DNA of 64,000 bases, from positions 49,158 through 113,157 of the IMG/VR virus record IMGVR_UViG_3300048910_000190, one strand, 5' to 3'. Positions 21,883 to 63,439 of the stretch are shown one piece after another. This DNA comes from a virus. The position numbers and the translations under genes are program-made. Position 1 is the first letter of the stretch, and each line of letters begins with the position of its first letter. The notes beneath the pieces were generated by a model that saw only the letters and a program-made list of their open reading frames with translations, made no database searches and had not been told where the DNA came from.

Positions 21883-21892
21883 AGGGGCGCGC

Positions 21893-23984: not shown

Positions 23985-23988
23985 CGCG

Positions 23989-24300: not shown

Positions 24301-24528
24301 GGGCCGGTGTTCGAATTGTGAAAGTCAGGACCGGAAGCGATCGTTGCTGCTTACGGTGGCATACGGTCCATCAGTGGGGCTACGGGCGTTAGGTACCTGT
24401 TACGGCGTGTTCGAATGATCTGCCTTGGGCGGCTGGGATGAATGTGGGCATACCCGGCCAGACGCGGATGACACTTGCTGCATATCTGCTGCTGACTTCC
24501 GATCTTGCTGCGGGCAGCGTGACTACGT

Positions 24529-24765: not shown

Positions 24766-24810
24766 CAGGGCAGCCCTGGTGGCCGTCGACGGCCTCGGCA
24801 CGGTCCTCGA

Positions 24811-32622: not shown

Positions 32623-32996
32623 GCAGACTCTCCGGCCATGCGTGGACCACCCTCTACCGCGCGCAGAACCTGTGGCACGACATGCTCGCTCGACTGTTGG
32701 GCTACTGCAACGACTGCCCCTGGCGGCCCGACCCAGGGGAGGGCGCCGGATACTCCCACTGGCGATGCGGCTGGAAGCGGGGTCACGAAGGTTTGCACCG
32801 CTACCGCAACTACGCCTGGTCAGACGACGGCAACTGCGACTACGTGCCCGTGCCTCATGGCCGGACATGGCCCACCCAGCCGAATGACCGCCGGTCTGTG
32901 CTGACCCGCCGCCAGCAGCGTCGGCGGAGGGCATGGGAAGAGCAGCAGCACGCAGAGAGGCTCCTGGCTCTCGCCCCCCACTCTGAGGCGGAGTAG
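32619..32996 (+). CDS. Cys/His-containing hypothetical protein
   Basis: CNDC and RCGWKRGHEGLH motifs; coupled to neighbours. Confidence 0.65.
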   Translation: MSRLSGHAWTTLYRAQNLWHDMLARLLGYCNDCPWRPDPGEGAGYSHWRCGWKRGHEGLHRYRNYAWSDDGNCDYVPVPHGRTWPTQPNDRRSVLTRRQQRRRRAWEEQQHAERLLALAPHSEAE

Positions 32997-32998
32997 CG

Positions 32999-34806: not shown

Positions 34807-34818
34807 GAAGGGGAATCC

Positions 34819-35025
34819 ATGGCCACCATCGACCCGAATCGGGCACTGCCCGTCTATCAGGCCCGCGTCAGCAACATGATCAACGACATCATTCTCCGAG
34901 ACATCGCCATCTCCGAACTGGAGGAGAGCAACAGTCGGCTCCAGCAGGAGAACGTGGACCTGAGGAAGCAGGTCCACGACCTGACCCCAGGCCGCGACCC
35001 GGCTGCTCCCTCCGAGGTTGACTAG
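34819..35025 (+). CDS. Small coiled-coil protein
   Basis: ISELEESNSRLQQENVDLRKQV; RBS AAGGGA. Confidence 0.7.
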   Translation: MATIDPNRALPVYQARVSNMINDIILRDIAISELEESNSRLQQENVDLRKQVHDLTPGRDPAAPSEVD

Positions 35026-36245: not shown

Positions 36246-36715
36246 CGGGCTGCCTTGCTGGTGCGGTGGGGGAGGGCGGCGTGGCCTTGGCCGTTGACGT
36301 GGTCGTGGATGGCGCGGGCCCGGTCGGGGTTGATGGTGTGGTGGCGGATCAGGTCGAGCGGGTCCGCGCTCGGGGCGCCGGAGGGGCCGCGGCGGGGCGG
36401 GGAGACGATGCGGACACGGTTGGCCTTGGTGTCGGCGATCCGCTGGAGGAGGTCGGCTCGGGCCGCGTCACGGCTGGCCGGGGTGGACTGGGGGCGGCCG
36501 TCGTCGGGCATGTGCGGCTCGTGGAGGACGACGTCGAGGAGCGTGTCCAGGTCTGCAGGGTCGATGCCGTACTCGGCGGCCCGCCACGCGAGCGTGTCCA
36601 CCGGGAGGACGTGCAGGTGGGCCTGCCCGTCGGGGCGGAGCTGGTGGATGAACCAGCAGTCGGTGCCGCCGACGAGCGCCCGGGTGACGCCGGTGACGGT
36701 GAACGTGTCAGTCAT
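36242..36715 (-). CDS. Tail-region hypothetical protein (possible fibre chaperone)
   Basis: LAWRAAEYGIDP..LDVVLHEP; position between tail genes. Confidence 0.7.
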   Translation of the reverse strand: MTDTFTVTGVTRALVGGTDCWFIHQLRPDGQAHLHVLPVDTLAWRAAEYGIDPADLDTLLDVVLHEPHMPDDGRPQSTPASRDAARADLLQRIADTKANRVRIVSPPRRGPSGAPSADPLDLIRHHTINPDRARAIHDHVNGQGHAALPHRTSKAAR

Positions 36716-36723
36716 AAGTCCCC

Positions 36724-39546
36724 CTAGACCCTGTACGACCAGATGTTGACGGCGCCTGAGGCGCTCGCGCTGAATGAGGCGGTGAACCCGGTGGTGGACG
36801 AGGCGGAGATCTGCGTGGACTTGGCTGCGCCGGAGTCGACCAGCGTCACCAGGGGAACCATGGTCGATGCCATCGTCGCGCCGTACGTCAGGGACACCCC
36901 GCTGACTCCGGAGATCGACACCGATCCGGTGAAGACCGCGTCCTTCGAGGACGCCGCGACGTAGTTGTTGAACTTGCCGACAAGCCGGACCAGTCCGGTG
37001 TCGTGAAACTTCAGCATGCTCGACGACGCCGAGCCCTCGGTGATGTCGAATCCGATCTGCGTGTACGTGTCGTTGACGATCCAGTAGCCCTTGTTGTTGG
37101 TCTGGAGGCGGGTGTCGGTCGCCCCGATTGCGAGGGAGTGGCCGAAGCCGGTGTTGTAGCCGATGTACGCGCTGCTGTCGTCGAGGGACAGGACCGTGGC
37201 CCCGGCATTCTCGGCGCTCGACTGGAAGAGCAGCCCGGGGACGAAGCCGCTGGCGAAAGCTCCGATCGACGAGTAGTCCGTTGCGGAGTAGTCGGTGTAG
37301 CAGCGGATCTCTGGCTGTCCGACACCGACGGGGTTGACCACCAGACGGTTGGAGCCGGCGATGCCCGTCGCGAACGTGCCGATGATTGACACGTTGCCGG
37401 TGGCTGATGCGATGTCGACGGTCTGGGTGCCAGCCGCGTTGAAGGCCTGCAGCCCGGCGGAGTTGAGCTCGACACGAGCCCCGGTGTCGGCGGTCTTGAT
37501 GCGGGCGCCGACGATCCAATCCGCGTTGATGGTCCCGGCGGTGACCTTGCTGACGGTCAGGTCAGAGATGTGCGCGTCGTCGATCAGCAGAGCCGTGGCC
37601 GTGGCGGCGTCGGACGGCGCGGACTTGTTGCCCGCGATGTCGACCGCGATGACGCGCACGTACCGGGCGGAGGTCTCTTCGACCTGCACGGTGGTGACGA
37701 CCGGCACCTGAGCCTGGATCATGCCCGCTGTGGCGGAGACCTTGGCCTTGAGGGTTGTCGGGGACGGCGTGAAGTACGGCTCGTACTCGACGTGGATCTC
37801 CAGGTGGTGGAGGTCCGCTTCGAGGTTGTAGGTGCCGCCGCTTGCCCGGCCGAGCGTGTGCGTGATCTGCAGGGCGATGCGGGACGCCGCCACCGACGGC
37901 GGCGCGGGTGTGCTCGGGGGAATGTTGTCGGCGGTGGCCACGATCGTTGTCGTTGGCGACCACGCCCCGATGTTGCCGGCCCGGTCAACCGCGCGGATCT
38001 GCAGGTCGTAGCCGATGCCGGGCGCCAGGTCGAGGAGCTGCGCGGTGGTGGTCCCCCACGCGACGTTCATGTACTGCCACTGGCCGGTGGGGGCGGCGAA
38101 AGGCTGCCGCCACTGCTGCAGGTCCTCCCATCGGACCTGGGAGAGCTGGGACCAGGTGGCGGGGTAGATCAGGTCGGTGTCGACGGCCCACCGCAGTTCG
38201 TAGTGGTCGCCGTCGAGGACCGTGGAGCCGTCGGTGTTGTTGGGGGCGTTCCAGGCCGTGATGAGGCGGGCCCGGGTGAAGCCCCGGTTGTCGAGGTAGG
38301 CGGCGCCGGAGAACGGGGTGATGAACGTCGGAACGCCGGGGATGGACGTGTCGGCGGTGGGGCGGGAGCCGACGGGTTCGGTGCTGGAGTTGGTGAGCTG
38401 TCTCTCGAAGTTGCCGACGACCACGGTGGTGGTGCCGTCGGGTTCGAACGTCACGTAGTCCGTGAGGTCGGTCCACGCGCCTGCGGCGGACCGGTAGCCG
38501 ACGGTGTGCCCGGCGGTGACGGGCCACGTCGTCTCGGTGACCTGCAGCTTCAGCGGGTTGAGGCGCTGCCCCCGGAAATTGATCTCGTTGGCGGTGTCAA
38601 CGAGGCCCTTGTCCGGGTCGTACGTCCACACGTAGTCGCCCGGGATGAAGCTCCCCGCGATGTCGTAGTCAGCGGCGGTCAGGGTGAGGGCGTGGTGCGG
38701 GCCGGTGAACTGGGAGAGGGCCAGCTGCGCGCGGACGATCGCGTTGGTCTGCGAGGTGCCGGACTCGGACACCATGCGGGTGAACGCGACGCTGTTGCCG
38801 TGCAGGTCCTTGTACGGGTTGAGGGCGGGGTTGATGTTGGCGGAGCCGGTGGCGATGGACGCGCCTTCGCCCTGCGCGAGGAGGACGACGCGGGTGGTGA
38901 AGTCCTGCACGTCCTCGGCAAGGTTCAGCTGTCCGGGGAGTGCGAGGAGGTTCATGTCCTGACCGGCGCCGCGTTTGACGATCGCGCATGCCGGGGTGGT
39001 GACGAAGAGGTTGGACTCCGGGCCCGCGTCGAGGGTGCCGTTGCCGTTGACCCGCCACGACACGGGCACGGCAGTGGTGGACATGGTGTCGCACACGTAC
39101 TGGATGGCCTTGCGGGGGGTTTGCCACTGGTGGACGCCGGAGTAGGTGCCCGCAACCGAGTACAGGGTGCCCTCGGTGATTGCACCGGAGGACGGGAGCA
39201 GGCCGCGGATGGCGGTCGGGAACGAGGCGGAGATGAAGGCGAAGGGGCTCTCGATTACGGCGCCCTTGTCGTCCTCGTCGCCGAGCCAGAACTCCAGTCC
39301 ACTGCCGCCGATCTGGACCATGTCGGCCCGGGTGCGGGCGTCGTCGGAGAAGGTCTTTGAGCGGACGACGCCGACGTACCGGGCGGCGGTGAGGAGGTTG
39401 TCGCCGTAGGCGCGGGGGTCGATGCGTCCGGCGACGATCGCGATGTGGCCGAGTTCTTGGACGGCGTCGAGTACGTCGCGCGGGCAGTCCGGCTTGAGGG
39501 CGATCTGCCAGGAGCCGAGGGCGGTGTGGACTTGGGTGACGGGCAT
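36724..39546 (-). CDS. Minor tail (hub/central fibre) protein with FN3-like domains
   Basis: About 940 aa; YDLQIRAVDRAGN and YVRVIAVDIAGNKS FN3 signatures. Confidence 0.85.
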   Translation of the reverse strand: MPVTQVHTALGSWQIALKPDCPRDVLDAVQELGHIAIVAGRIDPRAYGDNLLTAARYVGVVRSKTFSDDARTRADMVQIGGSGLEFWLGDEDDKGAVIESPFAFISASFPTAIRGLLPSSGAITEGTLYSVAGTYSGVHQWQTPRKAIQYVCDTMSTTAVPVSWRVNGNGTLDAGPESNLFVTTPACAIVKRGAGQDMNLLALPGQLNLAEDVQDFTTRVVLLAQGEGASIATGSANINPALNPYKDLHGNSVAFTRMVSESGTSQTNAIVRAQLALSQFTGPHHALTLTAADYDIAGSFIPGDYVWTYDPDKGLVDTANEINFRGQRLNPLKLQVTETTWPVTAGHTVGYRSAAGAWTDLTDYVTFEPDGTTTVVVGNFERQLTNSSTEPVGSRPTADTSIPGVPTFITPFSGAAYLDNRGFTRARLITAWNAPNNTDGSTVLDGDHYELRWAVDTDLIYPATWSQLSQVRWEDLQQWRQPFAAPTGQWQYMNVAWGTTTAQLLDLAPGIGYDLQIRAVDRAGNIGAWSPTTTIVATADNIPPSTPAPPSVAASRIALQITHTLGRASGGTYNLEADLHHLEIHVEYEPYFTPSPTTLKAKVSATAGMIQAQVPVVTTVQVEETSARYVRVIAVDIAGNKSAPSDAATATALLIDDAHISDLTVSKVTAGTINADWIVGARIKTADTGARVELNSAGLQAFNAAGTQTVDIASATGNVSIIGTFATGIAGSNRLVVNPVGVGQPEIRCYTDYSATDYSSIGAFASGFVPGLLFQSSAENAGATVLSLDDSSAYIGYNTGFGHSLAIGATDTRLQTNNKGYWIVNDTYTQIGFDITEGSASSSMLKFHDTGLVRLVGKFNNYVAASSKDAVFTGSVSISGVSGVSLTYGATMASTMVPLVTLVDSGAAKSTQISASSTTGFTASFSASASGAVNIWSYRV

Positions 39547-49800: not shown

Positions 49801-50820
49801 TCAGCCGGTGGGTGCTGTCCGGTCGAAGTGGCCTTCGCGGACCGCCCGGCGGGCTTTCGCTGCGACACGGGGCGGCAGGGTACGGCCCGAGGCGAGGAGG
49901 GAGCGGGCCGCGCGGATACGGGCGGCGCCGGACTCGGACGGCAACGCATTGCCCAGGGCGACCGACTCGGCGGCCTGCTGCTGCAGGAAGTCCGGCAGCC
50001 CGGCTGCGCGTCGCCACTCCGGAGACCACGGCACTGCACGGCACCGGCAGGCCGGGTGCAACGGCGGCCCGTCGATCGCATCCGGGCCGCTGCCACGCTG
50101 CAGCGGGTCGAACGACCGGCCCCCGTCGAAGTCCTCGCCCGGCCCGGCGACCTGGCCCGAGTACGCGGCGCAGTTCACGCAGGCGTCCAGCTCGGCGATC
50201 CAGATGCGACCGAACCCGAGGTCGTCGGCGACAGCACGGGCCCCGGTGTTGACGGCCTGATGGACGAGCCAGGCGACGGCCGTGCGCACCCTCGCGATGG
50301 CGGCACGGGCCACGCCGAGCGCCGCGGCGACGAGCCCGAACGGCTGCCCCTCGACCAGCCCCGGGTCAAGCAGGGCAAGCGCCCGCCCGATCTGGGTCTC
50401 CACCGTCCGCTCCAGGCGGTCGAGGACCCGGCCGGTGTCGGGGTGGGCCCGTGCTCCCCGGCCGGCGGCGCGCGGGGGATGCCCGGCGGCGCGGGCGAAC
50501 GCCTGGGCCTGCCTGACGCCGAGCTTGAGCGCCCCGGGCATGGCCTTGCGCAGGGCGCGGACCGCGCGACGGCCCAGCCCGGCGAGAGCCTGTTCGACCT
50601 TGGCCGTCACCGTTGCGAGGAACTCCGCCAGTTCCTTGCCCGCCCCGACGGCGGCAACCGATCCGAACGCGGCGACCCACAAGCCCGCTGCTGTGGCGAG
50701 CAGTTCCTCCATGTGGGAGTCGCTGTCGCCAACGGCCTGCCGGGTGACGGTGTCCTCGTAGGCGGCCGCTTCGTCGGTGTGCTGGGCCTGGGCCAGGTCG
50801 GCGAGTGTGGCGGCGGTCAT
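49801..50820 (-). CDS. MuF-like minor capsid / head morphogenesis protein
   Basis: WIAELDACVNC...PPLHPACRC. Confidence 0.85.
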   Translation of the reverse strand: MTAATLADLAQAQHTDEAAAYEDTVTRQAVGDSDSHMEELLATAAGLWVAAFGSVAAVGAGKELAEFLATVTAKVEQALAGLGRRAVRALRKAMPGALKLGVRQAQAFARAAGHPPRAAGRGARAHPDTGRVLDRLERTVETQIGRALALLDPGLVEGQPFGLVAAALGVARAAIARVRTAVAWLVHQAVNTGARAVADDLGFGRIWIAELDACVNCAAYSGQVAGPGEDFDGGRSFDPLQRGSGPDAIDGPPLHPACRCRAVPWSPEWRRAAGLPDFLQQQAAESVALGNALPSESGAARIRAARSLLASGRTLPPRVAAKARRAVREGHFDRTAPTG

Positions 50821-52367
50821 GCGCCCTGCCCGTCAGGGGGGACGATGGCCGGCCGCGTGGTGAGGGCTTGGATGAGTGGGTCGATGAGCTGCTGCGCCTG
50901 ACCCTGGTCGATGGCGTTCAACGTGACGGCGGAGCCGATCTTCTGCAGGGAGTCGGCGAACGAGGCGAGGTCGGCGAGGCGGTCGCGGAGCTGTGCGGCA
51001 TCGTCCGTGGACTCCTCCAGCCACGCCTCCACCTGGTCGTCGGTGTAGCCGCCCTCCACCAGCACCTGCCGCAGCGGCACACCGAGCTTGGTCTTCTGCT
51101 CGGCGGCGAGCCACCCGAAACGGTCGTCGGTCGCGGAGGCCGCAGCCCACCGCACGTCAACGACCGGTTCTTCGAAGCCGAGGAGGCGCAGGGCGAACGT
51201 GAACACGTCCTGCCACGTCCCGCCGAAGGACAACTGACGGTTGCGGATCTTCTTGGTGAACGGCGCTTCCTTCGCTCGCAGGGACTCACCGGACGGGGCG
51301 TCACCCTGCGGGTCGAACAGGTGCAAAGGGGTGGTGGTGGACTGTGCCATCGCCCGTACGTTGAACATCACCGGGTCGAGGAACACGTTCGGCTGCGCCG
51401 CATCGAACTGGCCAACGGCCTTGAAGCCCCTGAGGAGCATCACCTCGCCCGGGCCGGCCTTCAACGCGGAGGTGTCACCGGAGTCGGTGGGCCCGGACTC
51501 GGGGTCTGGTGGGAAGAAGTCGTCGTCGAAGTCGCTCGGGTCGAGGTCCCCGGTGTCGGTGGTCGCGGCCTCGGTGAGCGCGTAGCGCTGAGGAAAGCCC
51601 TGGTAGTCGACGGTGGCCATGTGGGTCGCGATGAGCTTGTTGATGGCGTTCTGGGGGCCGTAGGCGCGCTTGTGTTCGGGTGCGCCGAAGGGCCGGTCGG
51701 TACGGAAATGGAAGACGGGGATCTCGCCGTAGTCGTGGTCGATGAGCCACGACTCCGGGTCCGGCTCGCCGTCGTCTTCCGGCGTCGCAAGCCACGGCAT
51801 CCAGTCGCGTTCTGCGGTGCCTTGCGAGTCCGGCCGGGTGGTCCACCGTTCGATCCGGTCGGGGTAGTACAGCTCTGCCCTGTAGGTCTTGCCCTCGCAC
51901 CACTTCTTGATGGCGTAGCGCTTCTCGCGCGGGTTCTCCTCGTCGTAGATGACCCGCACGGTCGTCGGCGAGTTGTAGAACATCTGCACATCTTGGACCG
52001 TGTCGTTCTCGTCGGCGGCCGGGAGGACGATGAGGTAGGCGTCGCCGAACTCGCAGGCCCGGCGGTGGACGTCGCCAGCCTCCAGGTCCATGCCGTTGCT
52101 GTCCCAGACGCCCTGCAGCGCCTCGGCCTGGGTGTCGTCCGGGCTGGTGACGGCGGCGATCTCCAACCGGTCGACGACCGCGTCGACAACGGTGCACGCG
52201 AAGTTGAGATCGAAGTCGATGCCGGTGCGCTCCATGGCCCGTTGGACTCGCACGGAGGAGAACACTTCCGGGGCGGTTCCCTCGTAGTAGGCGTCGGCCT
52301 TGTCGTAGGCGTGGCGGGAGTCCCTCAGGGACTTGATCCCGTCCCACAGGTCATCGCTCGCCGTCAC
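50817..52367 (-). CDS. Portal protein (SPP1 gp6-like)
   Basis: YYEG, NFACTVVDAVVDRL, IPVFHF, DYQGFPQRY. Confidence 0.92.
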   Translation of the reverse strand: MTASDDLWDGIKSLRDSRHAYDKADAYYEGTAPEVFSSVRVQRAMERTGIDFDLNFACTVVDAVVDRLEIAAVTSPDDTQAEALQGVWDSNGMDLEAGDVHRRACEFGDAYLIVLPAADENDTVQDVQMFYNSPTTVRVIYDEENPREKRYAIKKWCEGKTYRAELYYPDRIERWTTRPDSQGTAERDWMPWLATPEDDGEPDPESWLIDHDYGEIPVFHFRTDRPFGAPEHKRAYGPQNAINKLIATHMATVDYQGFPQRYALTEAATTDTGDLDPSDFDDDFFPPDPESGPTDSGDTSALKAGPGEVMLLRGFKAVGQFDAAQPNVFLDPVMFNVRAMAQSTTTPLHLFDPQGDAPSGESLRAKEAPFTKKIRNRQLSFGGTWQDVFTFALRLLGFEEPVVDVRWAAASATDDRFGWLAAEQKTKLGVPLRQVLVEGGYTDDQVEAWLEESTDDAAQLRDRLADLASFADSLQKIGSAVTLNAIDQGQAQQLIDPLIQALTTRPAIVPPDGQGA

Positions 52368-52433: not shown

Positions 52434-53984
52434 TCAGGCGACGTAGGACTGGCTGCGAGCCGTCACCTGGCGCTGCTTCGGCGGATCCAAGAATCGGCTG
52501 ACTGCCGAGCCAACAGCGTCAACGAGGTCGTCGAACGGAGCTTTCGGGAAGGCAACCATCTGCTCCTCCAGGTCCCGCAGCGCGCGGGCATGCAGGACCC
52601 GGCCCCGCTGGTAGTGGTTGAGGACCTTGGCGGCGCGGACCTCCTTCGGTTCCCGCTGGTGCACGGTGCGGAGCTTGACGGGCATGTGGTGGAGGATCGC
52701 CTGCCACGCGTCGCCGCCCTGGTTCGTCTCGATGACGATCAGCCCGATCTCCGGGTACTCGTCGAGGATCGCGAGGACCCGCTCCCTCAGCTTGGCGCCG
52801 GGCGGGATGCGGACAGGGATCGCGGCGTGCACAGTGCACGACCTTGTCTGCGCGCACCACGACACCACCGCGAGGCCCGTGAAGTCCGAGGTGGCTTTCG
52901 CGGTCACGGCCGGGTCGATGCTGAGCATCATGTGCGTGACGGGCTCGGTGCCGTACCGGAAGTCCTCGGCCGACCAGTAGTCCCCGTCTGCGCCCATCGG
53001 GTCGTTCGCCATGTTCTTTGCGTACGACCGGGTGTGCTCGATGCTCTTCAGGTATGCGAGCGGCCACTTGGCCGGCCACATGGAACGCTCCGTGCCGTCG
53101 TCCGCGCGGACGATCGGCATCGAATGGTGGGCCTGGAAGTTCTCGTCCCGGATCCACTCGGCGGTCTCCGTGCCCCGGGCGTGCTTGACGAGCTGGTGAA
53201 CGATCGACCCGGGCATGGTGACGGTGCCGACCAGCACGACCCGCGCATAGATGTTGAGCGGCAGAATCGCGTCCTTGAGGGTGGTGAGGCGCTTCCCTGC
53301 CTGGTCAGCCGAGTAGGACGACTCGTCGGGCTCCACATCGTCCAGCAGCAGCAGATCGGGGCGGCGGGAGCCGACCTTCATACCGAGGCTGCTGGAGTCC
53401 ATGCCGCGCGCGGCAAATGCGAACCCCGACTGGGCGACGTACATGCGCTGCGTGTCCGCAACCGATGCGCCGGAGGGGCGCTTGGCGGGATTGCACAGCT
53501 CAGGGAAGTCCTGCTGTAGCCACTCGTTGGTATTCAGCTCGGACTTGAACGTCGACAGGTGACCTTCGGCCTGCGCGGCGGAGGAGGAGAACGCGGCGAC
53601 GAACTTGATGAAGCCGTGCGCGGCGGCCCACATCGGCAGCAGCAGGAACCACCACGTGGACTTGCCGGTGGAGCGGGGTGCGATGTAGGCGTCGCGCTGC
53701 TCGGCCGGGGCTTGGGCGGGGCGGATCCAGCGGCGTCCGGCGCGGCACCAGTCGAGGTGTGCGTCGCCGAAGCTGACGTTGCCTTCGGCGTCCCGGAGGT
53801 GGGCGCGGAGGTACACCAAGGCGAACAGGATTGGATCAAGACGTGTGAGCGTTCGGCGCCCCTCCGGACTGTCGAGCATCCGCACGTCAGGCACGGCCCG
53901 GGCCAGGTACGCGTCCAGGTCGAAGCTTTCCGCGTCGAGCCCGGCGAGGTAGGAGTCGAGCGGCTCGGTGATGGCATCGATCAC
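52434..53984 (-). CDS. terL: Terminase large subunit
   Basis: Walker A APRSTGKS, Walker B LLLLDDVE, nuclease SIDPA...DDLVDA. Confidence 0.95.
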   Translation of the reverse strand: MIDAITEPLDSYLAGLDAESFDLDAYLARAVPDVRMLDSPEGRRTLTRLDPILFALVYLRAHLRDAEGNVSFGDAHLDWCRAGRRWIRPAQAPAEQRDAYIAPRSTGKSTWWFLLLPMWAAAHGFIKFVAAFSSSAAQAEGHLSTFKSELNTNEWLQQDFPELCNPAKRPSGASVADTQRMYVAQSGFAFAARGMDSSSLGMKVGSRRPDLLLLDDVEPDESSYSADQAGKRLTTLKDAILPLNIYARVVLVGTVTMPGSIVHQLVKHARGTETAEWIRDENFQAHHSMPIVRADDGTERSMWPAKWPLAYLKSIEHTRSYAKNMANDPMGADGDYWSAEDFRYGTEPVTHMMLSIDPAVTAKATSDFTGLAVVSWCAQTRSCTVHAAIPVRIPPGAKLRERVLAILDEYPEIGLIVIETNQGGDAWQAILHHMPVKLRTVHQREPKEVRAAKVLNHYQRGRVLHARALRDLEEQMVAFPKAPFDDLVDAVGSAVSRFLDPPKQRQVTARSQSYVA

Positions 53985-55047: not shown

Positions 55048-58000
55048 TTAGGACAGGGCGCACCACCAGGCGTTGGACGCTCCTGCGAGGGTGCCGATGC
55101 TGGACGGCATTGAGGTGGTCTGGCCGGTCGCCGCGGTGCCATAGCGGCTGGTGGATGCCGAGAGGCCCGCGTTGACGGCGCTCTGGCTGACCCCTCGCAG
55201 GAAGGACGGCAGCGTGCTGCCGTTGGCGAAGAAGCCGATCAGATAGTCCCCGGCCGCGAGAGCCTGCGCGCCCCCGGCGAGGGCCATCGTCTTCGTGCCG
55301 GTGCTCGCCCAGGCCGTCGCCTGATCAGCGGTCGATGCGATCAGGCTGCCCGCTGCGGTGTACAGCCCGGCGAAGCACTGGCCGCTCGTCAGGCCGGATC
55401 CGGCGGTGGAGACGAACATCAGGATGTTGGTGATGGAAGCGGCGACGGGGAGGTGGATGCGGGCGAAGTGCACCGTGCCCGCGGCTGGGAGGAGTTGCCC
55501 GGCTGCGCAGGTGGCGGGGTCTTGGGTCCAGGTGGTCAGGCCGTGGTCTTCCGGTGACCAGTAGACGCGGGGGTGGACGTGGCCGACCGCTGTGGCGCTG
55601 GGGCCTGCCCCGGCGGCGCCGATCGCGCCGGCCTTGGTGGGGATGGTGGTGGTGTCTACGGTGGCGCCGCTGCTGGCGGAGGTGAGGGCGTAGCGCATCA
55701 GCTCGCCCATCGTGAGGACTGGGATCCCCTTGGAGTTGATCGCGGCGATGATCGAGGTGAAGTCGGAGGTGAGGCACTGGGAGGTGTCGGCCGGGCTGGC
55801 GGCGACGAGCTGGTGGAAGTTGAGGACCAACACGCCACCGTTGGCCTTGATCTTGTCGAGGTCTCCGCCCGCGCCGGTGATGTTGGCGGGCGCGTAGCCG
55901 CCGGAGAAGGAGGAGATGGCGGAGATGCGCCGGACCCGGAACGGGTCCGACGGCGGGAAGACCTCGCGGGTCTTGTTGACCGTGGTCGCCGACGTCGCGA
56001 AGTACTTCTGCAGGATGCTGGTGATCGACGTGCCGTCAGTCGTCTTGCCGGTCGCCCCCTTCGGCAACGCGAACAGGTCAGCGCCGTGGAAGCCGTTGCT
56101 GACGGCGTACGCCTTCATCGCGCGGGCGTCCGCATCCACCTGCGCGGCCGTCACCCCGGCGTAGGTGAGCCCGTGGATCGTGTCCGAGCTGGCATGGCAG
56201 GCCAGCTCCCAACCGGACGCGGCTTGGAGGTCCTGCATCTCCTGGAGCGTCAAGCGGCCCGACAGGCCCACCCGGTCCTGGATGACGTAGGCCGTTACCG
56301 GGTAGCCGTACGTGTCGAGGATGGTCTTGCCCTGGTCGATGAACGACTGGTACACGTCATCGGCGGTCAGGATCACGACGCCGGACGGGAACACCGCCGC
56401 CCCGTCAGCGATCAGTTCGGCGGCCTGCAGGCGCACCGTGACCGCCGCCCCCGTGTCCCGGATCCGGACGCGCAGCGCGGTGAGACCGGAGCGGGCGCCG
56501 GCCCCGACCGCGGTGGCGTCCGCGAACCCGAGGCTCATCAGCACCCAGTCGCCGGACGTCAGGTAGGTGCTGGTGCCGGTGGTGCTCTGCGGGTTCCATG
56601 TCCAGCCGGACGCGAACGTGCCGTCGACGGCGAGCGTGACGTCGAGGTTCTGCAGGGTCGTGATGTCTTCGACGCGCACGGCGATTCGCAGCGCCTTGCC
56701 GGTCGTGTCCGCCGAGGTGATCGCCCCGGTGACGGCGTAGGTGGCATTGTCGCCCGGGCTGACGTACTTGGCGCACTGGGAGCCGCGGGCGAACACGACT
56801 GTGTCGGCCGTGAGGGTGCCACCGTTGGCGACGAAGCTGTTGCCGGACTGCCACTCGGTGAGGATTGCCGAGGCCTGCGGGAAGCGGGGGAGACGGAACG
56901 TGGGCGGGTAGATGGCGGTGCTGCTACCGGAAGCACTGTTGCTGGTGTTGGTCAGCAGGATGCTGGCCGGGTAGTTGGTGGAGGCGTAGACGGTGCCGGT
57001 CCCGGTGCCCTTCGTGACCAGGGCCAGGGTGACGAGGCCGCCGGAGATGTGGCCGGCCGCGACGGTGAACTCCCACTCGCCGCCGACTCCTGGGAATGAG
57101 GATGCCTGCGGATAGTAGGAGGGCAGGCCTTCGGTGGCAGGGGTGGTCGTGCCGGACGAGGCGTACAGGTTGGGTACGCCCGATGAGTCGAGCAACGCGA
57201 GGTCGAGGAACTGTCCGGAGGAGGAGCGCATGAAGCTCGCGGAGATGCTGACCTTGTCGCCCGCGGCGGCGGCGATCTGTGCCTGCAGCGGTACGGTGCC
57301 GCCACTCTTGACGATCTGCCAGGCACCGGAGGTGTTGGGCAGGGTCACGTCGCCGGGCGTGAGGTACTGCTCGACGGTCGTGACCGTGGTGCCGCTACTT
57401 CCTCCGCTGCCTGCAGTCGCTGTGGCCCAGGCGACACCCGCGCTCTTGGTCGAGTCCGCGGTGAAGACCTGCCCGTCCGTGCCGACGCCGACCCGGGCGA
57501 GAGTGCCGGAGCCGGTGGCGACGAACACGTCGCCCTTCGTTGTCGCGAGGCTCTTGGCCACGTACAGGGCGGCGGCTGAGGTGACGGCTGCTCCGGATGC
57601 CGCGATGGCCCGGTTGTCGGCGTAGGCGCGGTCTCCGTGCGGGTCGGTCGCTGCGACGTGCGCGGTGATGGCAGCGGCCGGCGCCCCGCTGGCAGCGTAG
57701 GTGGCATTCGCGCGTGCGATTTCGGCGCTGATCTGGGTGTCGGTGTAGGCCCGATCGGCGTGCGGGTCGGTGGCAGCAACGTGGGCAGCCACTGCTGCTG
57801 CGGGGGCACCGGACGCGGCGTAGGTGGCATTGGCCCGGGCGACCTCTGCTGCCACCTTCGTGTCGGTGTAGGCCTCCGCGGTGGTGAGCGCAGCGGTTGC
57901 GGCGCCGGCCGCGTCGAAGGTGGCGATCGTCGCCGACGACAAGGTCGGGTTGGGGTAGGCGCCGGTAAGTGCGCCGCCGGCCGGGCCCGATGGTGCGCCG

Positions 58001-58530
58001 CCTCCGCTGCCGCCGATGGGCTGCCCGGTGCCCCAGGAGTTGGTGGTCTTCGGGCCGTAGATGACGAGTGCGGTCGGGATGCTGTTGTCGATGTACCAGT
58101 CGCCGACGATGCCGATGCCGAGGTCGGGGGCGCCGCTTCCGGAGCGGACGGAGTTGCCTTGCGGCCCGGTGACGACGAGGTAGGCGCCGGATGCGGGCAC
58201 GGTTGGGGTGACGGCGGGGAGGCTGACGTTGGGTGCTGCTGCTGGCAGGGCGAGCGGGTACAGCCGCACGATCTGGTGGGCTTTCATCTCGGCGACGAGA
58301 TAGGTCCAGCCGGTTGGGGTGCATCCGGCGGCGTCGGTGGCGACGAGCGTCGCGGCCATGCCGCCGGTGGCGTCGACGGTGGCGTTGCTGGTGCCGTGCA
58401 GGATGACGCCGTACGTGGGGGAGGTGACGGTGGGTGCGGTGAAGCGGACTTCGTCGATGTCGAGGGTGCCGTCGGGGGCGAGGTATCGGCCGGTGACGGT
58501 GACGGTTTCGAGTCCGGGGGGGAAGGTCAC
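55048..58530 (-). CDS. Large fibre/spike-like virion protein with a NodB polysaccharide-deacetylase-like domain
   Basis: Baseplate-anchor-like N-terminus, GDWYID/YPNPTL motifs, DPH repeats, TKGD motif, LTADD...WELACHA...IH, C-terminal WWCALS. Confidence 0.8.
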   Translation of the reverse strand: MTFPPGLETVTVTGRYLAPDGTLDIDEVRFTAPTVTSPTYGVILHGTSNATVDATGGMAATLVATDAAGCTPTGWTYLVAEMKAHQIVRLYPLALPAAAPNVSLPAVTPTVPASGAYLVVTGPQGNSVRSGSGAPDLGIGIVGDWYIDNSIPTALVIYGPKTTNSWGTGQPIGGSGGGAPSGPAGGALTGAYPNPTLSSATIATFDAAGAATAALTTAEAYTDTKVAAEVARANATYAASGAPAAAVAAHVAATDPHADRAYTDTQISAEIARANATYAASGAPAAAITAHVAATDPHGDRAYADNRAIAASGAAVTSAAALYVAKSLATTKGDVFVATGSGTLARVGVGTDGQVFTADSTKSAGVAWATATAGSGGSSGTTVTTVEQYLTPGDVTLPNTSGAWQIVKSGGTVPLQAQIAAAAGDKVSISASFMRSSSGQFLDLALLDSSGVPNLYASSGTTTPATEGLPSYYPQASSFPGVGGEWEFTVAAGHISGGLVTLALVTKGTGTGTVYASTNYPASILLTNTSNSASGSSTAIYPPTFRLPRFPQASAILTEWQSGNSFVANGGTLTADTVVFARGSQCAKYVSPGDNATYAVTGAITSADTTGKALRIAVRVEDITTLQNLDVTLAVDGTFASGWTWNPQSTTGTSTYLTSGDWVLMSLGFADATAVGAGARSGLTALRVRIRDTGAAVTVRLQAAELIADGAAVFPSGVVILTADDVYQSFIDQGKTILDTYGYPVTAYVIQDRVGLSGRLTLQEMQDLQAASGWELACHASSDTIHGLTYAGVTAAQVDADARAMKAYAVSNGFHGADLFALPKGATGKTTDGTSITSILQKYFATSATTVNKTREVFPPSDPFRVRRISAISSFSGGYAPANITGAGGDLDKIKANGGVLVLNFHQLVAASPADTSQCLTSDFTSIIAAINSKGIPVLTMGELMRYALTSASSGATVDTTTIPTKAGAIGAAGAGPSATAVGHVHPRVYWSPEDHGLTTWTQDPATCAAGQLLPAAGTVHFARIHLPVAASITNILMFVSTAGSGLTSGQCFAGLYTAAGSLIASTADQATAWASTGTKTMALAGGAQALAAGDYLIGFFANGSTLPSFLRGVSQSAVNAGLSASTSRYGTAATGQTTSMPSSIGTLAGASNAWWCALS
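57628..57873 (-). repeat. Two tandem 123-bp (41-aa) intragenic repeats
   Basis: AYTDT.....ARANATYAASGAPAAA..AHVAATDPH.DR twice. Confidence 0.9.
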
Positions 58531-58829: not shown

Positions 58830-59261
58830 TCAGCTGGTCAGTGCCCACTCGGGCTTGTAGTCGGGGTGATAGGCGTACGCCAGGGCGAACTTGCGGAGCG
58901 CGTCTTCCATGACGGCGGCGAAACCGCTCAAGAAGGTCGCGTGGTAGTCATGGGCGCGTTCAGCGAGGCGTATGACGTCCCGCTTGGCGTCGACCTCGGC
59001 CAGCACACGCGCCGGATCATGGCGGGCGATGTGGCTGGCATCGGCCATGCTTTGCCGGTCGTCGGTCTCACCAGTGCCTGCAACGCACGTCGCTGCAGCG
59101 CCATCAGGGCCGCTGAAGACGGCTTCCTCGAACCAGGAGGTGCCGGGCTTACGCCAGTGCTTGTTCGGATTGTGCCGCCACGGACCGCTCGTTGCTGCCC
59201 TTGCCGCCTGCTCGTCCTCGTCGAGGCGTGCCCGGAGAAAATCCACCAGGTCGTCGGTCAT
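58830..59261 (-). CDS. DUF6221-like phage protein
   Basis: DLVDFLRARLDEDE, HIARHDPARVLAEVDAKR, LAYAYHPDY. Confidence 0.85.
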   Translation of the reverse strand: MTDDLVDFLRARLDEDEQAARAATSGPWRHNPNKHWRKPGTSWFEEAVFSGPDGAAATCVAGTGETDDRQSMADASHIARHDPARVLAEVDAKRDVIRLAERAHDYHATFLSGFAAVMEDALRKFALAYAYHPDYKPEWALTS

Positions 59262-59481: not shown

Positions 59482-59760
59482 TCAGCAGTACGACTCGCCG
59501 CCGCACCCGTTCCACTGTGCGCGGACGTATTCCAGCGGCCCGTCGTCGTCGCTCCAGGTCGCAGATCCGGGCCCTGGGAGGCCGGGTGCCCAGGTGCCGT
59601 GCCTGCGGTCGTAGTCGAGGAGTTCGAGCGCCTGGTTGAGGTAGTCGTCGGGCGGCAGCGCCGGGTCGGCGAGGTGCTGCAGGTCTGCGGCCACGGCCCG
59701 CTGCAGCAGGTGGTCCCGCTCGGCCTTGGCAGTGCTGGTGAGGTGCGAATCAAGCTCCAC
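59482..59760 (-). CDS. Hypothetical protein downstream of the translocase
   Basis: RBS GGAGGTGG; overlaps the translocase stop. Confidence 0.6.
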   Translation of the reverse strand: MELDSHLTSTAKAERDHLLQRAVAADLQHLADPALPPDDYLNQALELLDYDRRHGTWAPGLPGPGSATWSDDDGPLEYVRAQWNGCGGESYC

Positions 59761-61720
59761 CGTCAGCCACCTCCTCCTCGTCGCGGGCCGGGAGCGAGTA
59801 CCTGACCGCTGCGCCCTCCTTCTCCCCGATGATGCCGTGCTCCAGCCACACGTCGACGGCCCGGCGGACCGTGTCCCGGCTGTCGAACGGGCCGTCCCGG
59901 TGCAACATGTCCTTCGTCACCGAGCCGTGCTCCTCGCACAGCTGGCAGAACACCCGGTACAGGGACGGCTGGCCATCCGCGCCGACCGGCTGGCCGTCCG
60001 GGTAGCAGAGCTGCGGGCGCGGAGGCGGAACGAGCCGAATCTGCGGCCGCACATCCGCAGCCGCTGGACGACCGCGCCCCATGACGACATCCCTGACGTC
60101 TGCCGTGATGTCCGCGCCGCTCACGAACTCCGCGCGGCACTTCGGCGGGCTCGTCAAAGGCATCTCCGGGCAGCCGAGATAGAACTCGCCCCGGCGCGTC
60201 AGCTCATGCGGGGTGAACCCCGCAGTCTTCCAACCGGTCCCGAAGATGAACTGGGTGTGCCCAGCCTCGCCAACCCGAGTAGAGATCCGGTTGCCGTAGT
60301 TCCCGCGGGCGTCCGTGTCACCACCGAACACCTTGGCGGAGGGCTGCTGCGTCGCAGAAAGGAACTGGATCCCGTAACCACGGGCGAGGGCCAGCAGCGA
60401 CTGGTACGTCGTCGTGATCGCCTGCTCGGCGGGGCCGGCGTCGGGGTCGCCCTTGGCGAGTGCGGCCTCCTCCTTGCGGAGTTCTTCGTCCTGCCGGATC
60501 AGCTCCGCGAGCTCATCGGTGACGATGAACCAGACCGGCCCGTGCACGCCGGGCACCCACTTCTGGATCGAATCGTGCCCCGCGGCGATCGACTCCTTCG
60601 ACAGCGCCTCCAGGACGGCGCCGCGACGGTCGAGTTCGGCGCGGATCTTGTGCAGAAGGTCGCGCGCCTCCTCCGGGCCGCGGGCGAGGCCCTTCATCAG
60701 GGGCTCCCACGGTCCGAGCTCCAGGGCGCCCGGCTTCATGTCGATCCCGAAGATCTCGACGTGCTTCTTGCGTAGCAGCTTCTTGACGATGAGGTTGACG
60801 ATCCCGGACTTGCCCCAGTCGCTGGCGCCGGCCACGAGGGTGTGCCGGTACAGCATGGTCAGGAGGACCGGCTCGCCGTTCTCGTCCCAGCCGATGCGGA
60901 TCGGGTCGTTGATGTCGTCAGTCTCGCCGTCGAGGCTGAACGGGATGACGTCGTCGCAGAAGGGGTTCCTGGCGGGGGTGGGCTCGGGCGCGATGAGGGC
61001 GTCGGCCGCCGGCGCCAGTTCATCGGCCTGGGCCGGGGCGGCGGTGGGCACGATGGCGCCCTTCACGGCCTTCGTCCCGTTGGTGGCGGCCAGTTCGCGC
61101 TCGTGCTTGCGATGCTCCTTCAGCCACGGCACCCAGCCGGCGTAGCCGACACCGGTCGCCACGACTGTCGCCATGAGCGAGGCGCCCCCGATACCACCTC
61201 CGACCGCTACTGCCGCGTCAGCAAGGGCGATGCCAACACCAGCGCTGATGGTGTGGAGGCTCTCCTTCTCGACCTTCAGCCCGATCCAGGACACGCCTGC
61301 GGCAACGGCGGTTGCGGCGGCGTATCCGGTGGCGGCACCAGCCCCGGCTCCGGCGAGGTGCTGCGCCCAGCCGATGGTGCTGACGGTGCCGGTAGCGGCG
61401 GCGGGGACGAGCTCCAGGCGGTAGCGGAGGACGAGGCTGTAGACGCGGCGGGCCACGAGGGCGCATCCGGCCCGGAGGCGGCGCTGAGCTGGGGTTTTCT
61501 TCTCTGTGACGGGCAGGTAGATGGAGTTGAAGTCCGGTGACGACGACGGCTGGGCTGGCGCGTCCGGGGCAAGCGTCCAGGTGATGTGACCTGCGGTTTC
61601 GACGACGGGGGCTGTCGTCGGCACGTTCGTCGTCGGAATCGTCGTCACGTTCGTCACGGCCGTGCTGGGCGCGCGCCGGGGCTGCGGCAGAAGCACGGGG
61701 CCGAGGTGCTGCTGGGCCAC
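59750..61720 (-). CDS. FtsK/SpoIIIE-family TraB-like DNA translocase
   Basis: N-terminal TMs; Walker A AGASDWGKS; GIDMKPG; Walker B FIVTDEL; ATQQP; C-terminal winged-helix-like domain. Confidence 0.88.
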   Translation of the reverse strand: MAQQHLGPVLLPQPRRAPSTAVTNVTTIPTTNVPTTAPVVETAGHITWTLAPDAPAQPSSSPDFNSIYLPVTEKKTPAQRRLRAGCALVARRVYSLVLRYRLELVPAAATGTVSTIGWAQHLAGAGAGAATGYAAATAVAAGVSWIGLKVEKESLHTISAGVGIALADAAVAVGGGIGGASLMATVVATGVGYAGWVPWLKEHRKHERELAATNGTKAVKGAIVPTAAPAQADELAPAADALIAPEPTPARNPFCDDVIPFSLDGETDDINDPIRIGWDENGEPVLLTMLYRHTLVAGASDWGKSGIVNLIVKKLLRKKHVEIFGIDMKPGALELGPWEPLMKGLARGPEEARDLLHKIRAELDRRGAVLEALSKESIAAGHDSIQKWVPGVHGPVWFIVTDELAELIRQDEELRKEEAALAKGDPDAGPAEQAITTTYQSLLALARGYGIQFLSATQQPSAKVFGGDTDARGNYGNRISTRVGEAGHTQFIFGTGWKTAGFTPHELTRRGEFYLGCPEMPLTSPPKCRAEFVSGADITADVRDVVMGRGRPAAADVRPQIRLVPPPRPQLCYPDGQPVGADGQPSLYRVFCQLCEEHGSVTKDMLHRDGPFDSRDTVRRAVDVWLEHGIIGEKEGAAVRYSLPARDEEEVADGGA

Positions 61721-61763
61721 GGCAAGGTCCTCTTTCTAGGGTGGGGAAACGGGAAACAAGCAG

Positions 61764-62268
61764 TGATGCGGACACGGAGCCCGGTGACTACAGGTAGCCG
61801 CCGGTGCCCTGCTGCGGGTCGGTGGATGATGCGCGGGAGAGCACGGTGCGGACGTAGTTCGCGTTGACGGTGATGCCGTGCGGTGCGAGCGCATCAGCGA
61901 TCTGCTGCGCCTGCGCATCAGGGTGCGCATCGCGCATCGCCCGGACTGCGGCGGCCTTCGAGAGCGCGGTGAGGTCGATGTCGTGCGGCGCCTCAAGGCC
62001 ATCGCTCGTGTGCGCATCAGGTGATGCGGCCTGCGGCACGGTGATGATGCGCGGGGCCGCATCACGGTTCTGACGTGTATAAACAGTGGGCGCATCAGGG
62101 GTGGCCGGGGCGCGGCGGGGCTGCGGTGACGGTGCGATCTGGCGTGGCTGCTGAAGCGTGATGACGATGTGCTGCGCATCGTCGTGCGATGCGGCGAGTG
62201 CGGCGGCGGGTGATGCGGTGATGCGCTCGGCGTGGGGCGCATCAGGTGAGGCGAAGTACGCCGCATCA
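61764..62268. repeat. Array of 13 CGCATCA/TGATGCG heptamers in both orientations
   Basis: Copies at 61764, 61827, 61890, 61914, 62013, 62022, 62045, 62058, 62091, 62211, 62219, 62238, 62262. Confidence 0.85.
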
Positions 62269-62795
62269 CCTTCGATGCGGTCGAGGCGGGCCTCGACAGC
62301 GGTGCGCGTCACGGTGAACGACTTCTTCGGGAAGAAGAGCCAAGCCAGCCCGGGGATCACGGGGAGTGACGCCTGGACGCGGCCTTGCTGGCGGAGTGCT
62401 TCGCGGTGCTCGAAGCGGTGCCACATCTCAAAGGCGATCTCGGCGATGCCGGGGGCGGAGCCGAGGAGGATGCCGCCGACGGTTCCCCAACCCTCCAGGT
62501 GGGCGTGGGTCCAGTTGGTCCAGGTGCTGGCGGAGACCATGGCGAGCATGGCGAGGCGCGGGGCGAGGCCCGAGTCCTCGGAGGTGGCGTAGCTCTGGGC
62601 GAGGAGGGCGAAGTAGAGGGCGGCGATGTCGAACATGCCGGAGCCGAAGACGGCAATCTGCCAGGGGGCGTGGAACATGACGGTGAGGAGGGTGTAGATG
62701 GACCAGGTGCCGACGGCGAGGGCTGCGCCCATGACGAGGAACAGGGCGCCGCGGATCGCCTTCTTCTTCCTGGGGCCGGTGCTGTTCTCGTTCAC
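61788..62795 (-). CDS. DUF2637-like (SpdB2-type) membrane protein with C-terminal HTH-like domain
   Basis: About four TMs, GMFDIAALYF motif, C-terminus LSKAAAV...YVRTVLSR...GTGGYL homologous to 2316-3428. Confidence 0.8.
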   Translation of the reverse strand: MNENSTGPRKKKAIRGALFLVMGAALAVGTWSIYTLLTVMFHAPWQIAVFGSGMFDIAALYFALLAQSYATSEDSGLAPRLAMLAMVSASTWTNWTHAHLEGWGTVGGILLGSAPGIAEIAFEMWHRFEHREALRQQGRVQASLPVIPGLAWLFFPKKSFTVTRTAVEARLDRIEGDAAYFASPDAPHAERITASPAAALAASHDDAQHIVITLQQPRQIAPSPQPRRAPATPDAPTVYTRQNRDAAPRIITVPQAASPDAHTSDGLEAPHDIDLTALSKAAAVRAMRDAHPDAQAQQIADALAPHGITVNANYVRTVLSRASSTDPQQGTGGYL

Positions 62796-62806
62796 GGGGT
62801 GGCCTT

Positions 62807-63142
62807 TCAGAGGTGGGCGTTGTGATGGGCGGGTGTGGTGATGCTGGGTGCTACGTGGTGGGCTGCGAGTGCGAGGAGCCAGGCGGCGGCTTGGGTGACG
62901 TGGGCTGCGGCGCGGAGGGTGGTGGTTGCGGTGAGTCGGAGGTGGAGGAGGGCGCCGGCGAGGGTGTGGGGTACGTCCCAGCGAAGGGTCCAGGCGCCGC
63001 CGGTGATGGCGGCGATGTAGGCGAGGACCGTGGCGGGGAGTGCGGTCGGGCCGGGGGTGTAGTGCCAGGCGATGAGCGCGAGGGCGATCGCCGCAACGGT
63101 GAGGGTGTGGTGTTCGGCGGGGGTGGCGTGGCGGCGGGTCAT
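62807..63142 (-). CDS. Membrane protein
   Basis: Two to three hydrophobic helices; upstream of the DUF2637 gene. Confidence 0.65.
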   Translation of the reverse strand: MTRRHATPAEHHTLTVAAIALALIAWHYTPGPTALPATVLAYIAAITGGAWTLRWDVPHTLAGALLHLRLTATTTLRAAAHVTQAAAWLLALAAHHVAPSITTPAHHNAHL

Positions 63143-63363
63143 GACCGACCGGCCGCGAACACGCGCTTGGTGGTTTCGAAGGTGGTCTCGGGTAGGGGTG
63201 CGATCCAGGATTTGGAGCAGGTGCGGAGTACGACCGCCGCGTGGTGTTCGCAGGCGTTGTTGCCGGTGGTCGAGTCGAGGAAGACGGTGACGACGGCGGG
63301 GCCGGTGCAGGAGGTGGTGGTGTCGACGAAGTGGGCTCGGCAGGTGGGGTCGAAGGTGGGCAT
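63139..63363 (-). CDS. Small Cys/His protein
   Basis: CRAH...SCTGP...ACEHHAA; RBS AAGGAG. Confidence 0.65.
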   Translation of the reverse strand: MPTFDPTCRAHFVDTTTSCTGPAVVTVFLDSTTGNNACEHHAAVVLRTCSKSWIAPLPETTFETTKRVFAAGRS

Positions 63364-63439
63364 GGTGGGCTCCTTGGTTGGTGGTCTGACTGCCTGCGGC
63401 TGCCGCACAGATGGGGGGCTGTGCGGCGCCGTCCGGCGG

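Follow-up and report, generated by a model that had tools for sequence, protein, structure and literature searches.

A pump, a membrane adaptor and a coding-region word array in an actinophage lineage: a candidate unit for moving phage DNA without virions

What is the role of an FtsK-like DNA pump that a tailed actinophage encodes, together with a multi-pass membrane protein, in the operon leading into its packaging genes? The question is raised by a stretch of 64,000 nucleotides (the window), which corresponds to bases 49158-113157 of the 135,339-bp IMG/VR virus record IMGVR_UViG_3300048910_000190, derived from a root metagenome assembly; positions below are those of the window unless the record is named. 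The pump gene (59750-61720, minus strand) follows the gene of a DUF2637/SpdB-like membrane protein, here called the adaptor (61788-62795, minus strand), and the latter gene conceals an array of a short DNA word. We examined these three parts, their relatives in phages, prophages and plasmids, and the explanations that might account for their association.

FtsK-like genes of Streptomyces phages are routinely annotated and left unexplained, and both the plasmid-phage pZL12 and phage homologs of the plasmid spread protein SpdB2 are published precedents for parts of what we describe. Three points go beyond the literature searched, namely, that pump, adaptor and array form a three-part unit in an integrase-bearing siphophage lineage, that such word arrays are general and selected at the DNA level, and that the word tracks the adaptor rather than the motor.

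A selected array of a short DNA word within the adaptor gene

A scan for clustering of every 7-, 8- and 9-mer of the 135-kb record, unbiased by any prior word, placed its top clustered words, GCGCATC, CGCATCA and GCGCATCAG, all at 61.5-62.3 kb of the window. Eight of the 21 exact copies of GCGCATCA in the whole record lie at 61827-62244, and with one mismatch allowed the array comprises about 16 copies on both strands at 61764-62268. It occupies the 3' half of the adaptor gene, which codes for the linker, and lies 50-550 bp before the pump start codon; its copies fall in several reading frames. Codon usage in this half of the gene is distinctive: the third-position G+C content (GC3), by which genes were called throughout the record, is 0.94 in the part coding for the membrane helices and 0.74 in the linker, where Asp is spelled GAT in 8 of 12 cases (9.6% record-wide) and Ser is spelled TCA in 4 of 7 (3.5% record-wide). 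Among five adaptor homologs sharing 62-73% protein identity, Asp-Ala in the linker half is written GAT-GCG in 6-9 of 6-10 cases, and Asp in the membrane half is always GAC. Because the rare-codon spelling has been kept in the homologs, the array is a DNA element concealed in coding sequence and kept by purifying selection at the DNA level. That the array might be a mere by-product of a peptide repeat was considered and is ruled out, here and in most related loci, by the use of both strands, several frames and rare codons; in four loci (L032, L052, L059 and L061) and in the plasmid locus L043, the arrays run mostly in one orientation and one frame, and a peptide repeat might account for them there.

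Application of the same scan to 34 nonredundant related loci of about 20 kb showed that the top word cluster adjoins the pump gene in 25 of them, against an expectation of 12.8% (binomial p, 7e-16). The words themselves differ by lineage and include, besides GCGCATCA, GGCGCC-like words, TGAGCGC, GCTTCGG, GTGTTCG, GTCCGGA, CGGTCCG (35 copies) and TTCCGTC. A distant sister group of the pump family (see below) has its array, of 11-32 word copies, just after the pump gene.

An FtsK-like pump on a branch of its own

The pump is a double-stranded DNA translocase of 656 aa belonging to the FtsK/SpoIIIE family (PF01580, E 1e-7; phrog_1358, E 1.5e-20), and it is the only FtsK-family protein encoded in the 135-kb record. 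Its Walker A (GASDWGKS) and Walker B (TDELAEL) motifs are invariant in 51 relatives. An AlphaFold (AF2) model built from 51 sequences, with a mean predicted local distance difference test score (pLDDT) of 78.6, consists of a disordered segment (residues 1-72), a helical bundle (77-219), a motor (about 250-550; pLDDT >90) and a C-terminal winged helix (585-642; pLDDT about 95) made up of helices at 585-598, 603-609 and 615-627 and a beta hairpin at 631-642. It is presumably via this winged helix that 11 of the 51 relatives match a GntR/HutC-type model. Foldseek searches with the pump model recovered the Escherichia coli FtsK motor (6T8G/2IUS) first, followed by the conjugation coupling protein TcpA and by EccC. 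The Pfam match, the Walker motifs and the model together confirm what a preliminary description of this DNA had noted, an intact FtsK-type ATPase with a motor and a winged helix-turn-helix (HTH); the helical bundle is a candidate for the membrane segment noted there. The family is small: a library of 1.84 billion representatives yielded 21 of its clusters at E 1e-30 and 165 at E 1e-10.

The affinities of the pump were approached through curated models and a tree of motor domains. Against the chromosomal FtsK model NF007615, it scores 16 bits, versus a cut-off of 1566. The plasmid_TraB model NF041214 is matched weakly by 9 of the 51 relatives (best E, 5e-8) and at 54 bits by gp10 of the Streptomyces phage Gilgamesh, and the relatives match this model slightly more often than they do the FtsK model. 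In the tree, the phage pump family forms a clade with Gilgamesh gp10 and a protein of ~130-kb linear Streptomyces plasmids (support 99/98), and this clade is sister to the distant phage group (support 89/88). Chromosomal FtsK clusters apart from the pump, joined by gp203 of the Mycobacterium phage Omega and gp25 of the Bacillus phage Shbh1. On this sequence evidence, the pump appears to be a deep branch of its own and is neither a host-type FtsK nor a member of curated plasmid_TraB. The same preliminary description had called the ATPase TraB-like, and that label holds in part: the pump has the Tra architecture and is collinear with pIJ101 Tra, and it lies outside the plasmid_TraB model. A single TraB clade to receive the pump does not exist in the tree, where the pump stands apart from chromosomal FtsK as well.

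A DUF2637/SpdB-like membrane adaptor

The adaptor (335 aa) is matched by phrog_10376 (E 2e-42) and lies at the border of PF10935, with 19.7-21 bits for the protein sequence and 23.5 bits for a six-frame search (cut-off, 22.8). A Kitasatospora homolog with 73% identity carries PF10935, and homologs in BE-cluster phages are annotated as DUF2637 proteins. In the adaptor, three or four predicted transmembrane helices at the N terminus are followed by a disordered linker, a three-helix HTH at the C terminus and a conserved GTGGYL tail. The AF2 model of the adaptor has a mean pLDDT of 50 from seven sequences, and its usable part is the C-terminal three-helix domain (pLDDT about 83). A 557-aa open reading frame (ORF) reaching 63461 might be read as the DUF2637 gene, but its 220-residue N-terminal extension, rich in Pro, Arg, Ser and Thr, is spurious.

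Adaptor tails that are otherwise unrelated end alike, in GTGGYL here (residues 329-335) and in GEGPYL, DGTYL and GSPYL in other loci (L005, L038, L054 and L058). The pump might dock onto this shared terminus, and the ability of adaptors to be exchanged would then be understandable.

Linkage of the word to the adaptor and not to the pump

If the winged helix of the pump read the array, closely related pumps should be found beside the same word. Instead, pumps with 84-91% identity overall (81-89% over the C-terminal 75 residues) adjoin different words and unrelated adaptor tails, and the same word occurs beside pumps only 47-52% identical where the adaptor tails are related (40-55% identity). 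Compared in this way, the word appears to follow the adaptor and not the winged helix of the pump. Part of this linkage is automatic because the word sits within the adaptor gene; the informative points in these comparisons are that the pump tolerates an exchange of the word and that the word persists while adaptor tails diverge.

A further indication comes from a second adaptor paralog of 370 aa (2316-3428, minus strand; 23% identity, BLASTP E 1e-6, with a weak PF10935 match), whose gene has no neighboring pump gene and lies left of a suspected assembly join discussed below. Its HTH helix (AYIRTALSR) resembles that of the main adaptor (NYVRTVLSR), and seven copies of the word CGCATC lie at 2035-2860, in and just below the 3' part of its gene. 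Since the pump tolerates a swap of the word, the word outlasts the divergence of the tails, and a paralog with a similar HTH carries CGCATC, we think that the C-terminal domain of the adaptor is the reader of the array and that the adaptor recruits the pump as a generic motor.

The unit is part of a phage lineage

Genomes of Kitasatospora and Streptomyces, as well as IMG/VR contigs, encode homologs of the pump with 39-76% identity. The gene order in Kitasatospora prophages is GntR, DUF6197, DUF2637, pump, DUF6221, two small genes, the large terminase subunit (TerL), portal and capsid, and the TerL proteins of these prophages are up to 78% identical to that of the present phage; Streptomyces prophages and IMG/VR phage contigs show this arrangement too. 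A reference actinomycete integrative and conjugative element (AICE) shows, for comparison, the order GntR-Tra-RepSA-Xis-Int, and tblastn searches for RepSA or an AICE integrase in 15 genome loci found none. By these comparisons the module is a conserved part of a phage lineage and not an adjacent AICE. The distant sister group (25-28% identity) likewise occurs in phage contigs, beside portal, MuF and prohead protease genes, and there the protein encoded ahead of the pump matches DUF2637 strongly (E 1e-19).

The family also has an isolated member. A hidden Markov model (HMM) of the family covers residues 2-616 of gp10 of the temperate Streptomyces phage Gilgamesh (E 6e-130), and it also matches the protein of the ~130-kb linear Streptomyces plasmids; given a size near that of Gilgamesh (129 kb), these plasmids may be phage-plasmids. 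One 131.5-kb linear Streptomyces plasmid (NZ_CP122459) and four like it hold the closest full-length pump relatives outside prophages, with 39% motor identity. In the prophage of Kitasatospora sp. NBC_00240 (locus L004), a TROVE (Ro60-like) protein is encoded between the pump and packaging genes (12852-14429 of that locus).

Functional interpretation

Of the explanations considered, the one that we favor, tentatively and as somewhat short of an even bet, is that the module is a phage-borne Tra/Spd/clt-like unit of transfer or spread that moves phage DNA across cross-walls or hyphal contacts. From the domain architectures, the selected array and the linkage of the three parts in phage genomes, we infer a chain of events in which the C-terminal HTH of the adaptor would bind the array of 7-8-bp words in its own gene and so hold the phage DNA at the membrane, with the array acting as a cis site. 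The FtsK-like pump, as a hexamer interacting with the adaptor, would then drive the tethered double-stranded DNA through a septal cross-wall or a hyphal contact, and replicating or excised phage genomes could thereby reach neighboring compartments or hyphae without virions. A bolder version, which we hold to be possible but somewhat more doubtful, is that some temperate actinophages possess a virion-independent "movement" system in which the adaptor reads a lineage-specific array in its own gene and hands the genome to the pump, the adaptor and its word forming an address cassette that can be exchanged independently of the pump.

Several observations weigh against a transfer role. The phage DNA is known from metagenomes only. 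The N-terminal segments of the pump are moderately hydrophobic (Kyte-Doolittle values of 1.55-1.63, versus 1.95 for the single segment of pIJ101 Tra), the pump gives no match to the plasmid_TraB model NF041214 (cut-off, 800 bits), and the motor-domain tree places Tra proteins of the pIJ101 type and the Tra of a pSAM2-type AICE elsewhere, with the deep nodes open. The word and the winged helix of the pump do not covary and pumps with 84-91% identity stand beside different words; therefore, the recognition known from TraB and clt is not reproduced. The location of the word inside the adaptor gene partly confounds the identification of its reader, and 9 of the 34 loci have no top-ranked array beside the pump gene. 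Finally, adaptor-like genes occur without a pump in lytic BE-cluster Streptomyces phages (e.g., MindFlayer gp32), as well as in the present record, and the adaptor must therefore have a function of its own.

This last point leads to the strongest competitor, according to which the adaptor anchors the phage DNA, be it replicating, episomal or prophage, to the membrane for stability or segregation and the motor clears or segregates DNA within the hypha, perhaps at cross-walls or sporulation septa, so as to secure its inheritance without any export. The behavior of SpdA2 of pIJ101, which binds a palindrome (sps) in its own gene and affects segregational stability but not transfer (Thoma et al. 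2014, PMC4170104), agrees with such tethering, as do the tracking of the adaptor rather than the pump by the word and the existence of adaptors that lack a pump. The closest full-length pump relatives outside prophages, in the 129-kb Gilgamesh genome and the ~130-kb linear plasmids, would also suit an episomal life. On the other hand, no ParA/ParB-type partner was seen beside the module, which lies in the operon leading into the packaging genes and not with the lysogeny genes; a serine integrase is present, making plasmid maintenance unnecessary; and the adaptor is retained even in the lytic BE-cluster phages. We regard tethering without export as unlikely, though as the most serious of the alternatives to DNA transfer.

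Less probable again is a role directed at the host, in which the module would act on host DNA or septation, for instance, by delaying the closure of cross-walls or sporulation, by superinfection exclusion or by mobilizing host DNA, with the array serving as an operator field. FtsK-like genes are indeed common among actinophages and Bacillus phages, lytic phages not excepted, and the class assigned in PHROGs is "moron / host takeover." However, the FtsK-like proteins of lytic phages (Omega gp203 and Bacillus Shbh1 gp25) group with chromosomal FtsK and not with the pump family, and an operator field would need neither 8-35 coding copies on both strands nor retention beside the pump across lineages. 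A search over the ~79-kb phage block that runs from window ~6985 to the end of the record found no over-represented or strand-skewed 8-mer resembling the FtsK-orienting polar sequences (KOPS), and a dispersed or skewed word of that kind is thus absent from this block.

We give still less credence to an origin-like locus, with the adaptor as an initiator or organizer of replication and the array as the origin, or as the site at which replication is attached to the membrane. The iterons of phage lambda lie within gene O, whose product binds them, and here too the sites lie inside the gene of their presumed binder, on both strands. The phage has, however, a separate replication arm, in which a DnaD-like (HTH_36) protein and a DnaB helicase are encoded on the opposite strand at a distance of about 9 kb; the adaptor spans the membrane several times; and in 25 of the 34 loci the array accompanies a DNA pump, not replication genes. 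The idea that the module is inert cargo, a fragment of an AICE or plasmid that landed in a prophage by accident, draws on the resemblance of its parts to plasmid ones and is close to refuted by the order conserved in Kitasatospora and Streptomyces prophages at 39-76% identity, by the negative tblastn result for RepSA and AICE integrases, by intact frames with catalytic motifs invariant in 51 sequences and by the purifying selection on the array DNA.

Filamentous actinomycetes are multicellular, and if the module does transfer DNA between compartments, a phage could spread without a receptor and without ever leaving the mycelium. Current views of phage containment, of lysogeny and of gene flow among Streptomyces-like bacteria would then have to be revised, and the line between phages and conjugative elements would be blurred, such phages being conjugative elements as well; there would be a certain likeness to the movement proteins of plant viruses. 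The unit to be tested consists of the pump, the adaptor and the word array, and Gilgamesh, which grows on Streptomyces lividans, offers a cultivable entry point.

The operon and its neighboring genes

The module belongs to a leftward operon on the minus strand in which the genes for the pump, the adaptor, DUF6221, terminase, portal and capsid are separated by short gaps or overlap, so that the ATPase, the DUF2637 protein and other membrane genes are contiguous with DUF6221, terminase and structural genes, as had been described. At the head of the operon, beyond the window, is a gene for a GntR/UTRA regulator (record 116814-117548), accompanied by small genes including one for a DUF6197 protein. 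The opposite arm, which holds the replication genes mentioned above, also has a Cro/CI-like gene. Upstream of the adaptor gene lie an ORF for an Ala/Leu-rich hydrophobic protein of 111 aa (62807-63142, minus strand; GC3, 0.86), for which no family was hit, and an ORF for a Cys-containing protein of 89 aa (63139-63408, minus strand; GC3, 0.84), which was assigned to no family. A small hydrophobic ORF similar to the former stands upstream of the pump gene in two other loci (L047 and L048).

Downstream of the pump, a 92-aa ORF (59482-59760, minus strand) without a Pfam, PHROG or NCBIfam hit overlaps the stop of the translocase gene by 11 nt, and this overlap suggests translational coupling with the pump. 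It is followed by the gene for the DUF6221 protein (58830-59261, minus strand; PF19730, E 2e-32), a family that 9 of the 15 homologous genome loci also encode, three of them (L029, L030 and L033) downstream of the pump and the rest elsewhere. Between the DUF6221 and terminase genes lies the gene for a 1,160-aa protein (55048-58530, minus strand) that combines a tail fiber-like N terminus (phrog_14726, E 1e-13) with a polysaccharide deacetylase domain (PF01522, E 2e-5); a paralog with 76% identity is encoded in the other structural module of the record (record 36041-38929). Two small genes then precede the gene for TerL (52434-53984, minus strand), which is 47-54% identical to its counterparts in the Streptomyces phages Yara, Dryad and KimJongPhill, and that for an SPP1-type portal protein (50817-52367, minus strand; PF05133, E 1e-14), after which come the head and tail genes.

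The record and the form of the phage

The G+C content is ~70% across the whole record, nearly all of which is phage-like; its minus strand carries two siphovirus structural modules. The host is a Kitasatospora/Streptomyces-like soil bacterium. To judge the assembly, metagenome contigs from four runs were mapped onto window 5001-25000. Their depth at 5001-6580 is 5-7 times that further right, contigs break near 6580 and at 6895-6985, and an exact 127-bp repeat is shared by record 1-127 and record 55611-55737. The part of the window left of ~7 kb may thus be attached through a chimeric join (left of ~6.6-7.0 kb) via an assembly repeat. The segment 5001-6985 is probably common to several phages of the sample, and more than one phage genome appears to have contributed to the record, which is rated "100% complete." Between ~7 and 25 kb, within the ~79-kb block searched above, a depth of ~10 is maintained in runs X3 and X4.

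This block includes a gene for a large serine integrase (22354-23895, minus strand; PF00239 and PF07508), and just upstream of it, at about 23920-23984, an attP-like imperfect inverted repeat was read from the sequence. Unbroken contigs of 19.6 kb (X3) and 7.4 kb (X2) span both. Phage genes flank the intact attP-like site on both sides, and the assembled molecule may be a free, episomal or tandem form of the phage rather than a simple integrated prophage. With the site intact, an integrated prophage and an excised circle are at most possibilities. No tRNA genes that could serve as att sites were found in the whole record. Of the "complete integrative phage" of the preliminary description, then, the integrase and its attP-like site stand, but integration does not follow, as the site is intact, and completeness is called into question by the likely chimeric join.

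Two further gene groups of this region deserve mention. Beside the attP-like site, a gene for an HTH_3/DUF5919 regulator overlaps a NUDIX hydrolase gene (25318-26536, plus strand); in the AICE pSAM2, NUDIX (Pif) proteins are known to confer transfer immunity. A cluster at 29924-35025 (plus strand), flanked by the tail and lysis genes and counter-oriented, codes for GT1/GT4 and GT2 glycosyltransferases, a methyltransferase and an NAD-dependent epimerase/dehydratase, and a comparable cluster lies upstream of the terminase gene in a Streptomyces prophage (L005).

Relationship to known systems

Among chromosomal systems, FtsK/SpoIIIE, guided by KOPS or SpoIIIE recognition sequences (SRS), and the FtsK-like genes of phage Omega and of SPO1-like Bacillus phages share with the pump the motor fold and the winged helix; the pump differs in occupying a separate branch, and the phage has no genome-wide skewed guide word. 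AICEs combine an integrase, a replication protein (RepSA, RepAM or Prim-Pol) and Tra in 9-25 kb without virion genes (PMC3218068), and from these the phage module is set apart by being embedded between early genes and those for terminase, portal and capsid.

Among phages, pZL12/phiZL12 is the nearest in kind, a tailed Streptomyces phage that carries a tra gene. It had been invoked as a precedent from the start, and it is a real one: as summarized in secondary accounts, the conjugal transfer of this plasmid-phage needs the tra gene (PMC3583192) and two genes adjacent to it (Zhong et al. 2010, via PMC3583192 and PMC4487206). Compared by description, it is a ~90-kb circular plasmid prophage with ParAB, whereas the present phage has a serine integrase and an attP-like site, and tblastn searches with the pump at E 1e-5 found no plasmid of the pZL12 size class (~90 kb). 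Gilgamesh (MN234216) has, in its gp10, annotated as an "FtsK-like DNA translocase," a full-length member of the pump family. It differs in its 129-kb genome with a tyrosine integrase gene beside the terminase gene, in the presence of a small membrane protein after gp10 instead of a DUF2637-type adaptor before the pump, and in having a weak Pro codon-like repeat at the 3' end of gp10. As regards SpdB-like proteins, the SpdB2 homologs of phages phiC31 and VWB are the published precedent.

The closest parallels are the transfer regions of Streptomyces plasmids (pSVH1, pIJ101, pJV1 and pWTY27) with their Tra, clt, SpdB2 and TraR components. The clt regions hold short 8-bp direct repeats, and TraR/KorA is a regulator of the GntR type (PMC4447253; PMC3583192). 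In pSVH1, as these accounts relate it, the clt repeats are bound by helix alpha-3 of the TraB winged helix (PMC4447253; PMC3583192, quoting Vogelmann 2011). According to Thoma et al. (2015), TraR is of the GntR type, and SpdB2, a membrane protein with four helices, forms pores, binds DNA and interacts with TraB. The phage module shares with these regions a single pump with a motor and a winged helix behind a putative membrane N terminus, a multi-pass partner, a GntR-type regulator and a cis site of short repeats; pIJ101 Tra is collinear with the pump and of equal length, with 26% identity over the motor. It differs in lying between early and packaging genes with no plasmid replication gene nearby, in a word that tracks the membrane partner and in a pump that falls outside plasmid_TraB on its own branch. 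No homologs of SpdB3, Spd79 or SpdA were recognized in the phage module. SpdA2 resembles what we predict for the phage adaptor in having its recognition site within its own coding sequence, but it is a small soluble protein with one palindrome, whereas the phage has a membrane protein and 8-35 copies of a lineage-specific word.

A comparable arrangement is found in a pIJ101-like plasmid of Streptomyces californicus, in which a GntR gene is divergent from tra, and tra is followed by a small gene and then, in the slot of SpdB, by the gene for a DUF2637 protein. Like the phage adaptor, this protein consists of transmembrane helices, a linker and a C-terminal HTH, and its gene contains 10-15 copies of CGTGAGC(A); in pairwise BLASTP, the phage adaptor, this plasmid protein and pIJ101 SpdB have no detectable similarity to one another. 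A DNA address that travels with the adaptor and not with the motor differs from the published TraB-clt model, and it may hold for plasmids as well as for phages.

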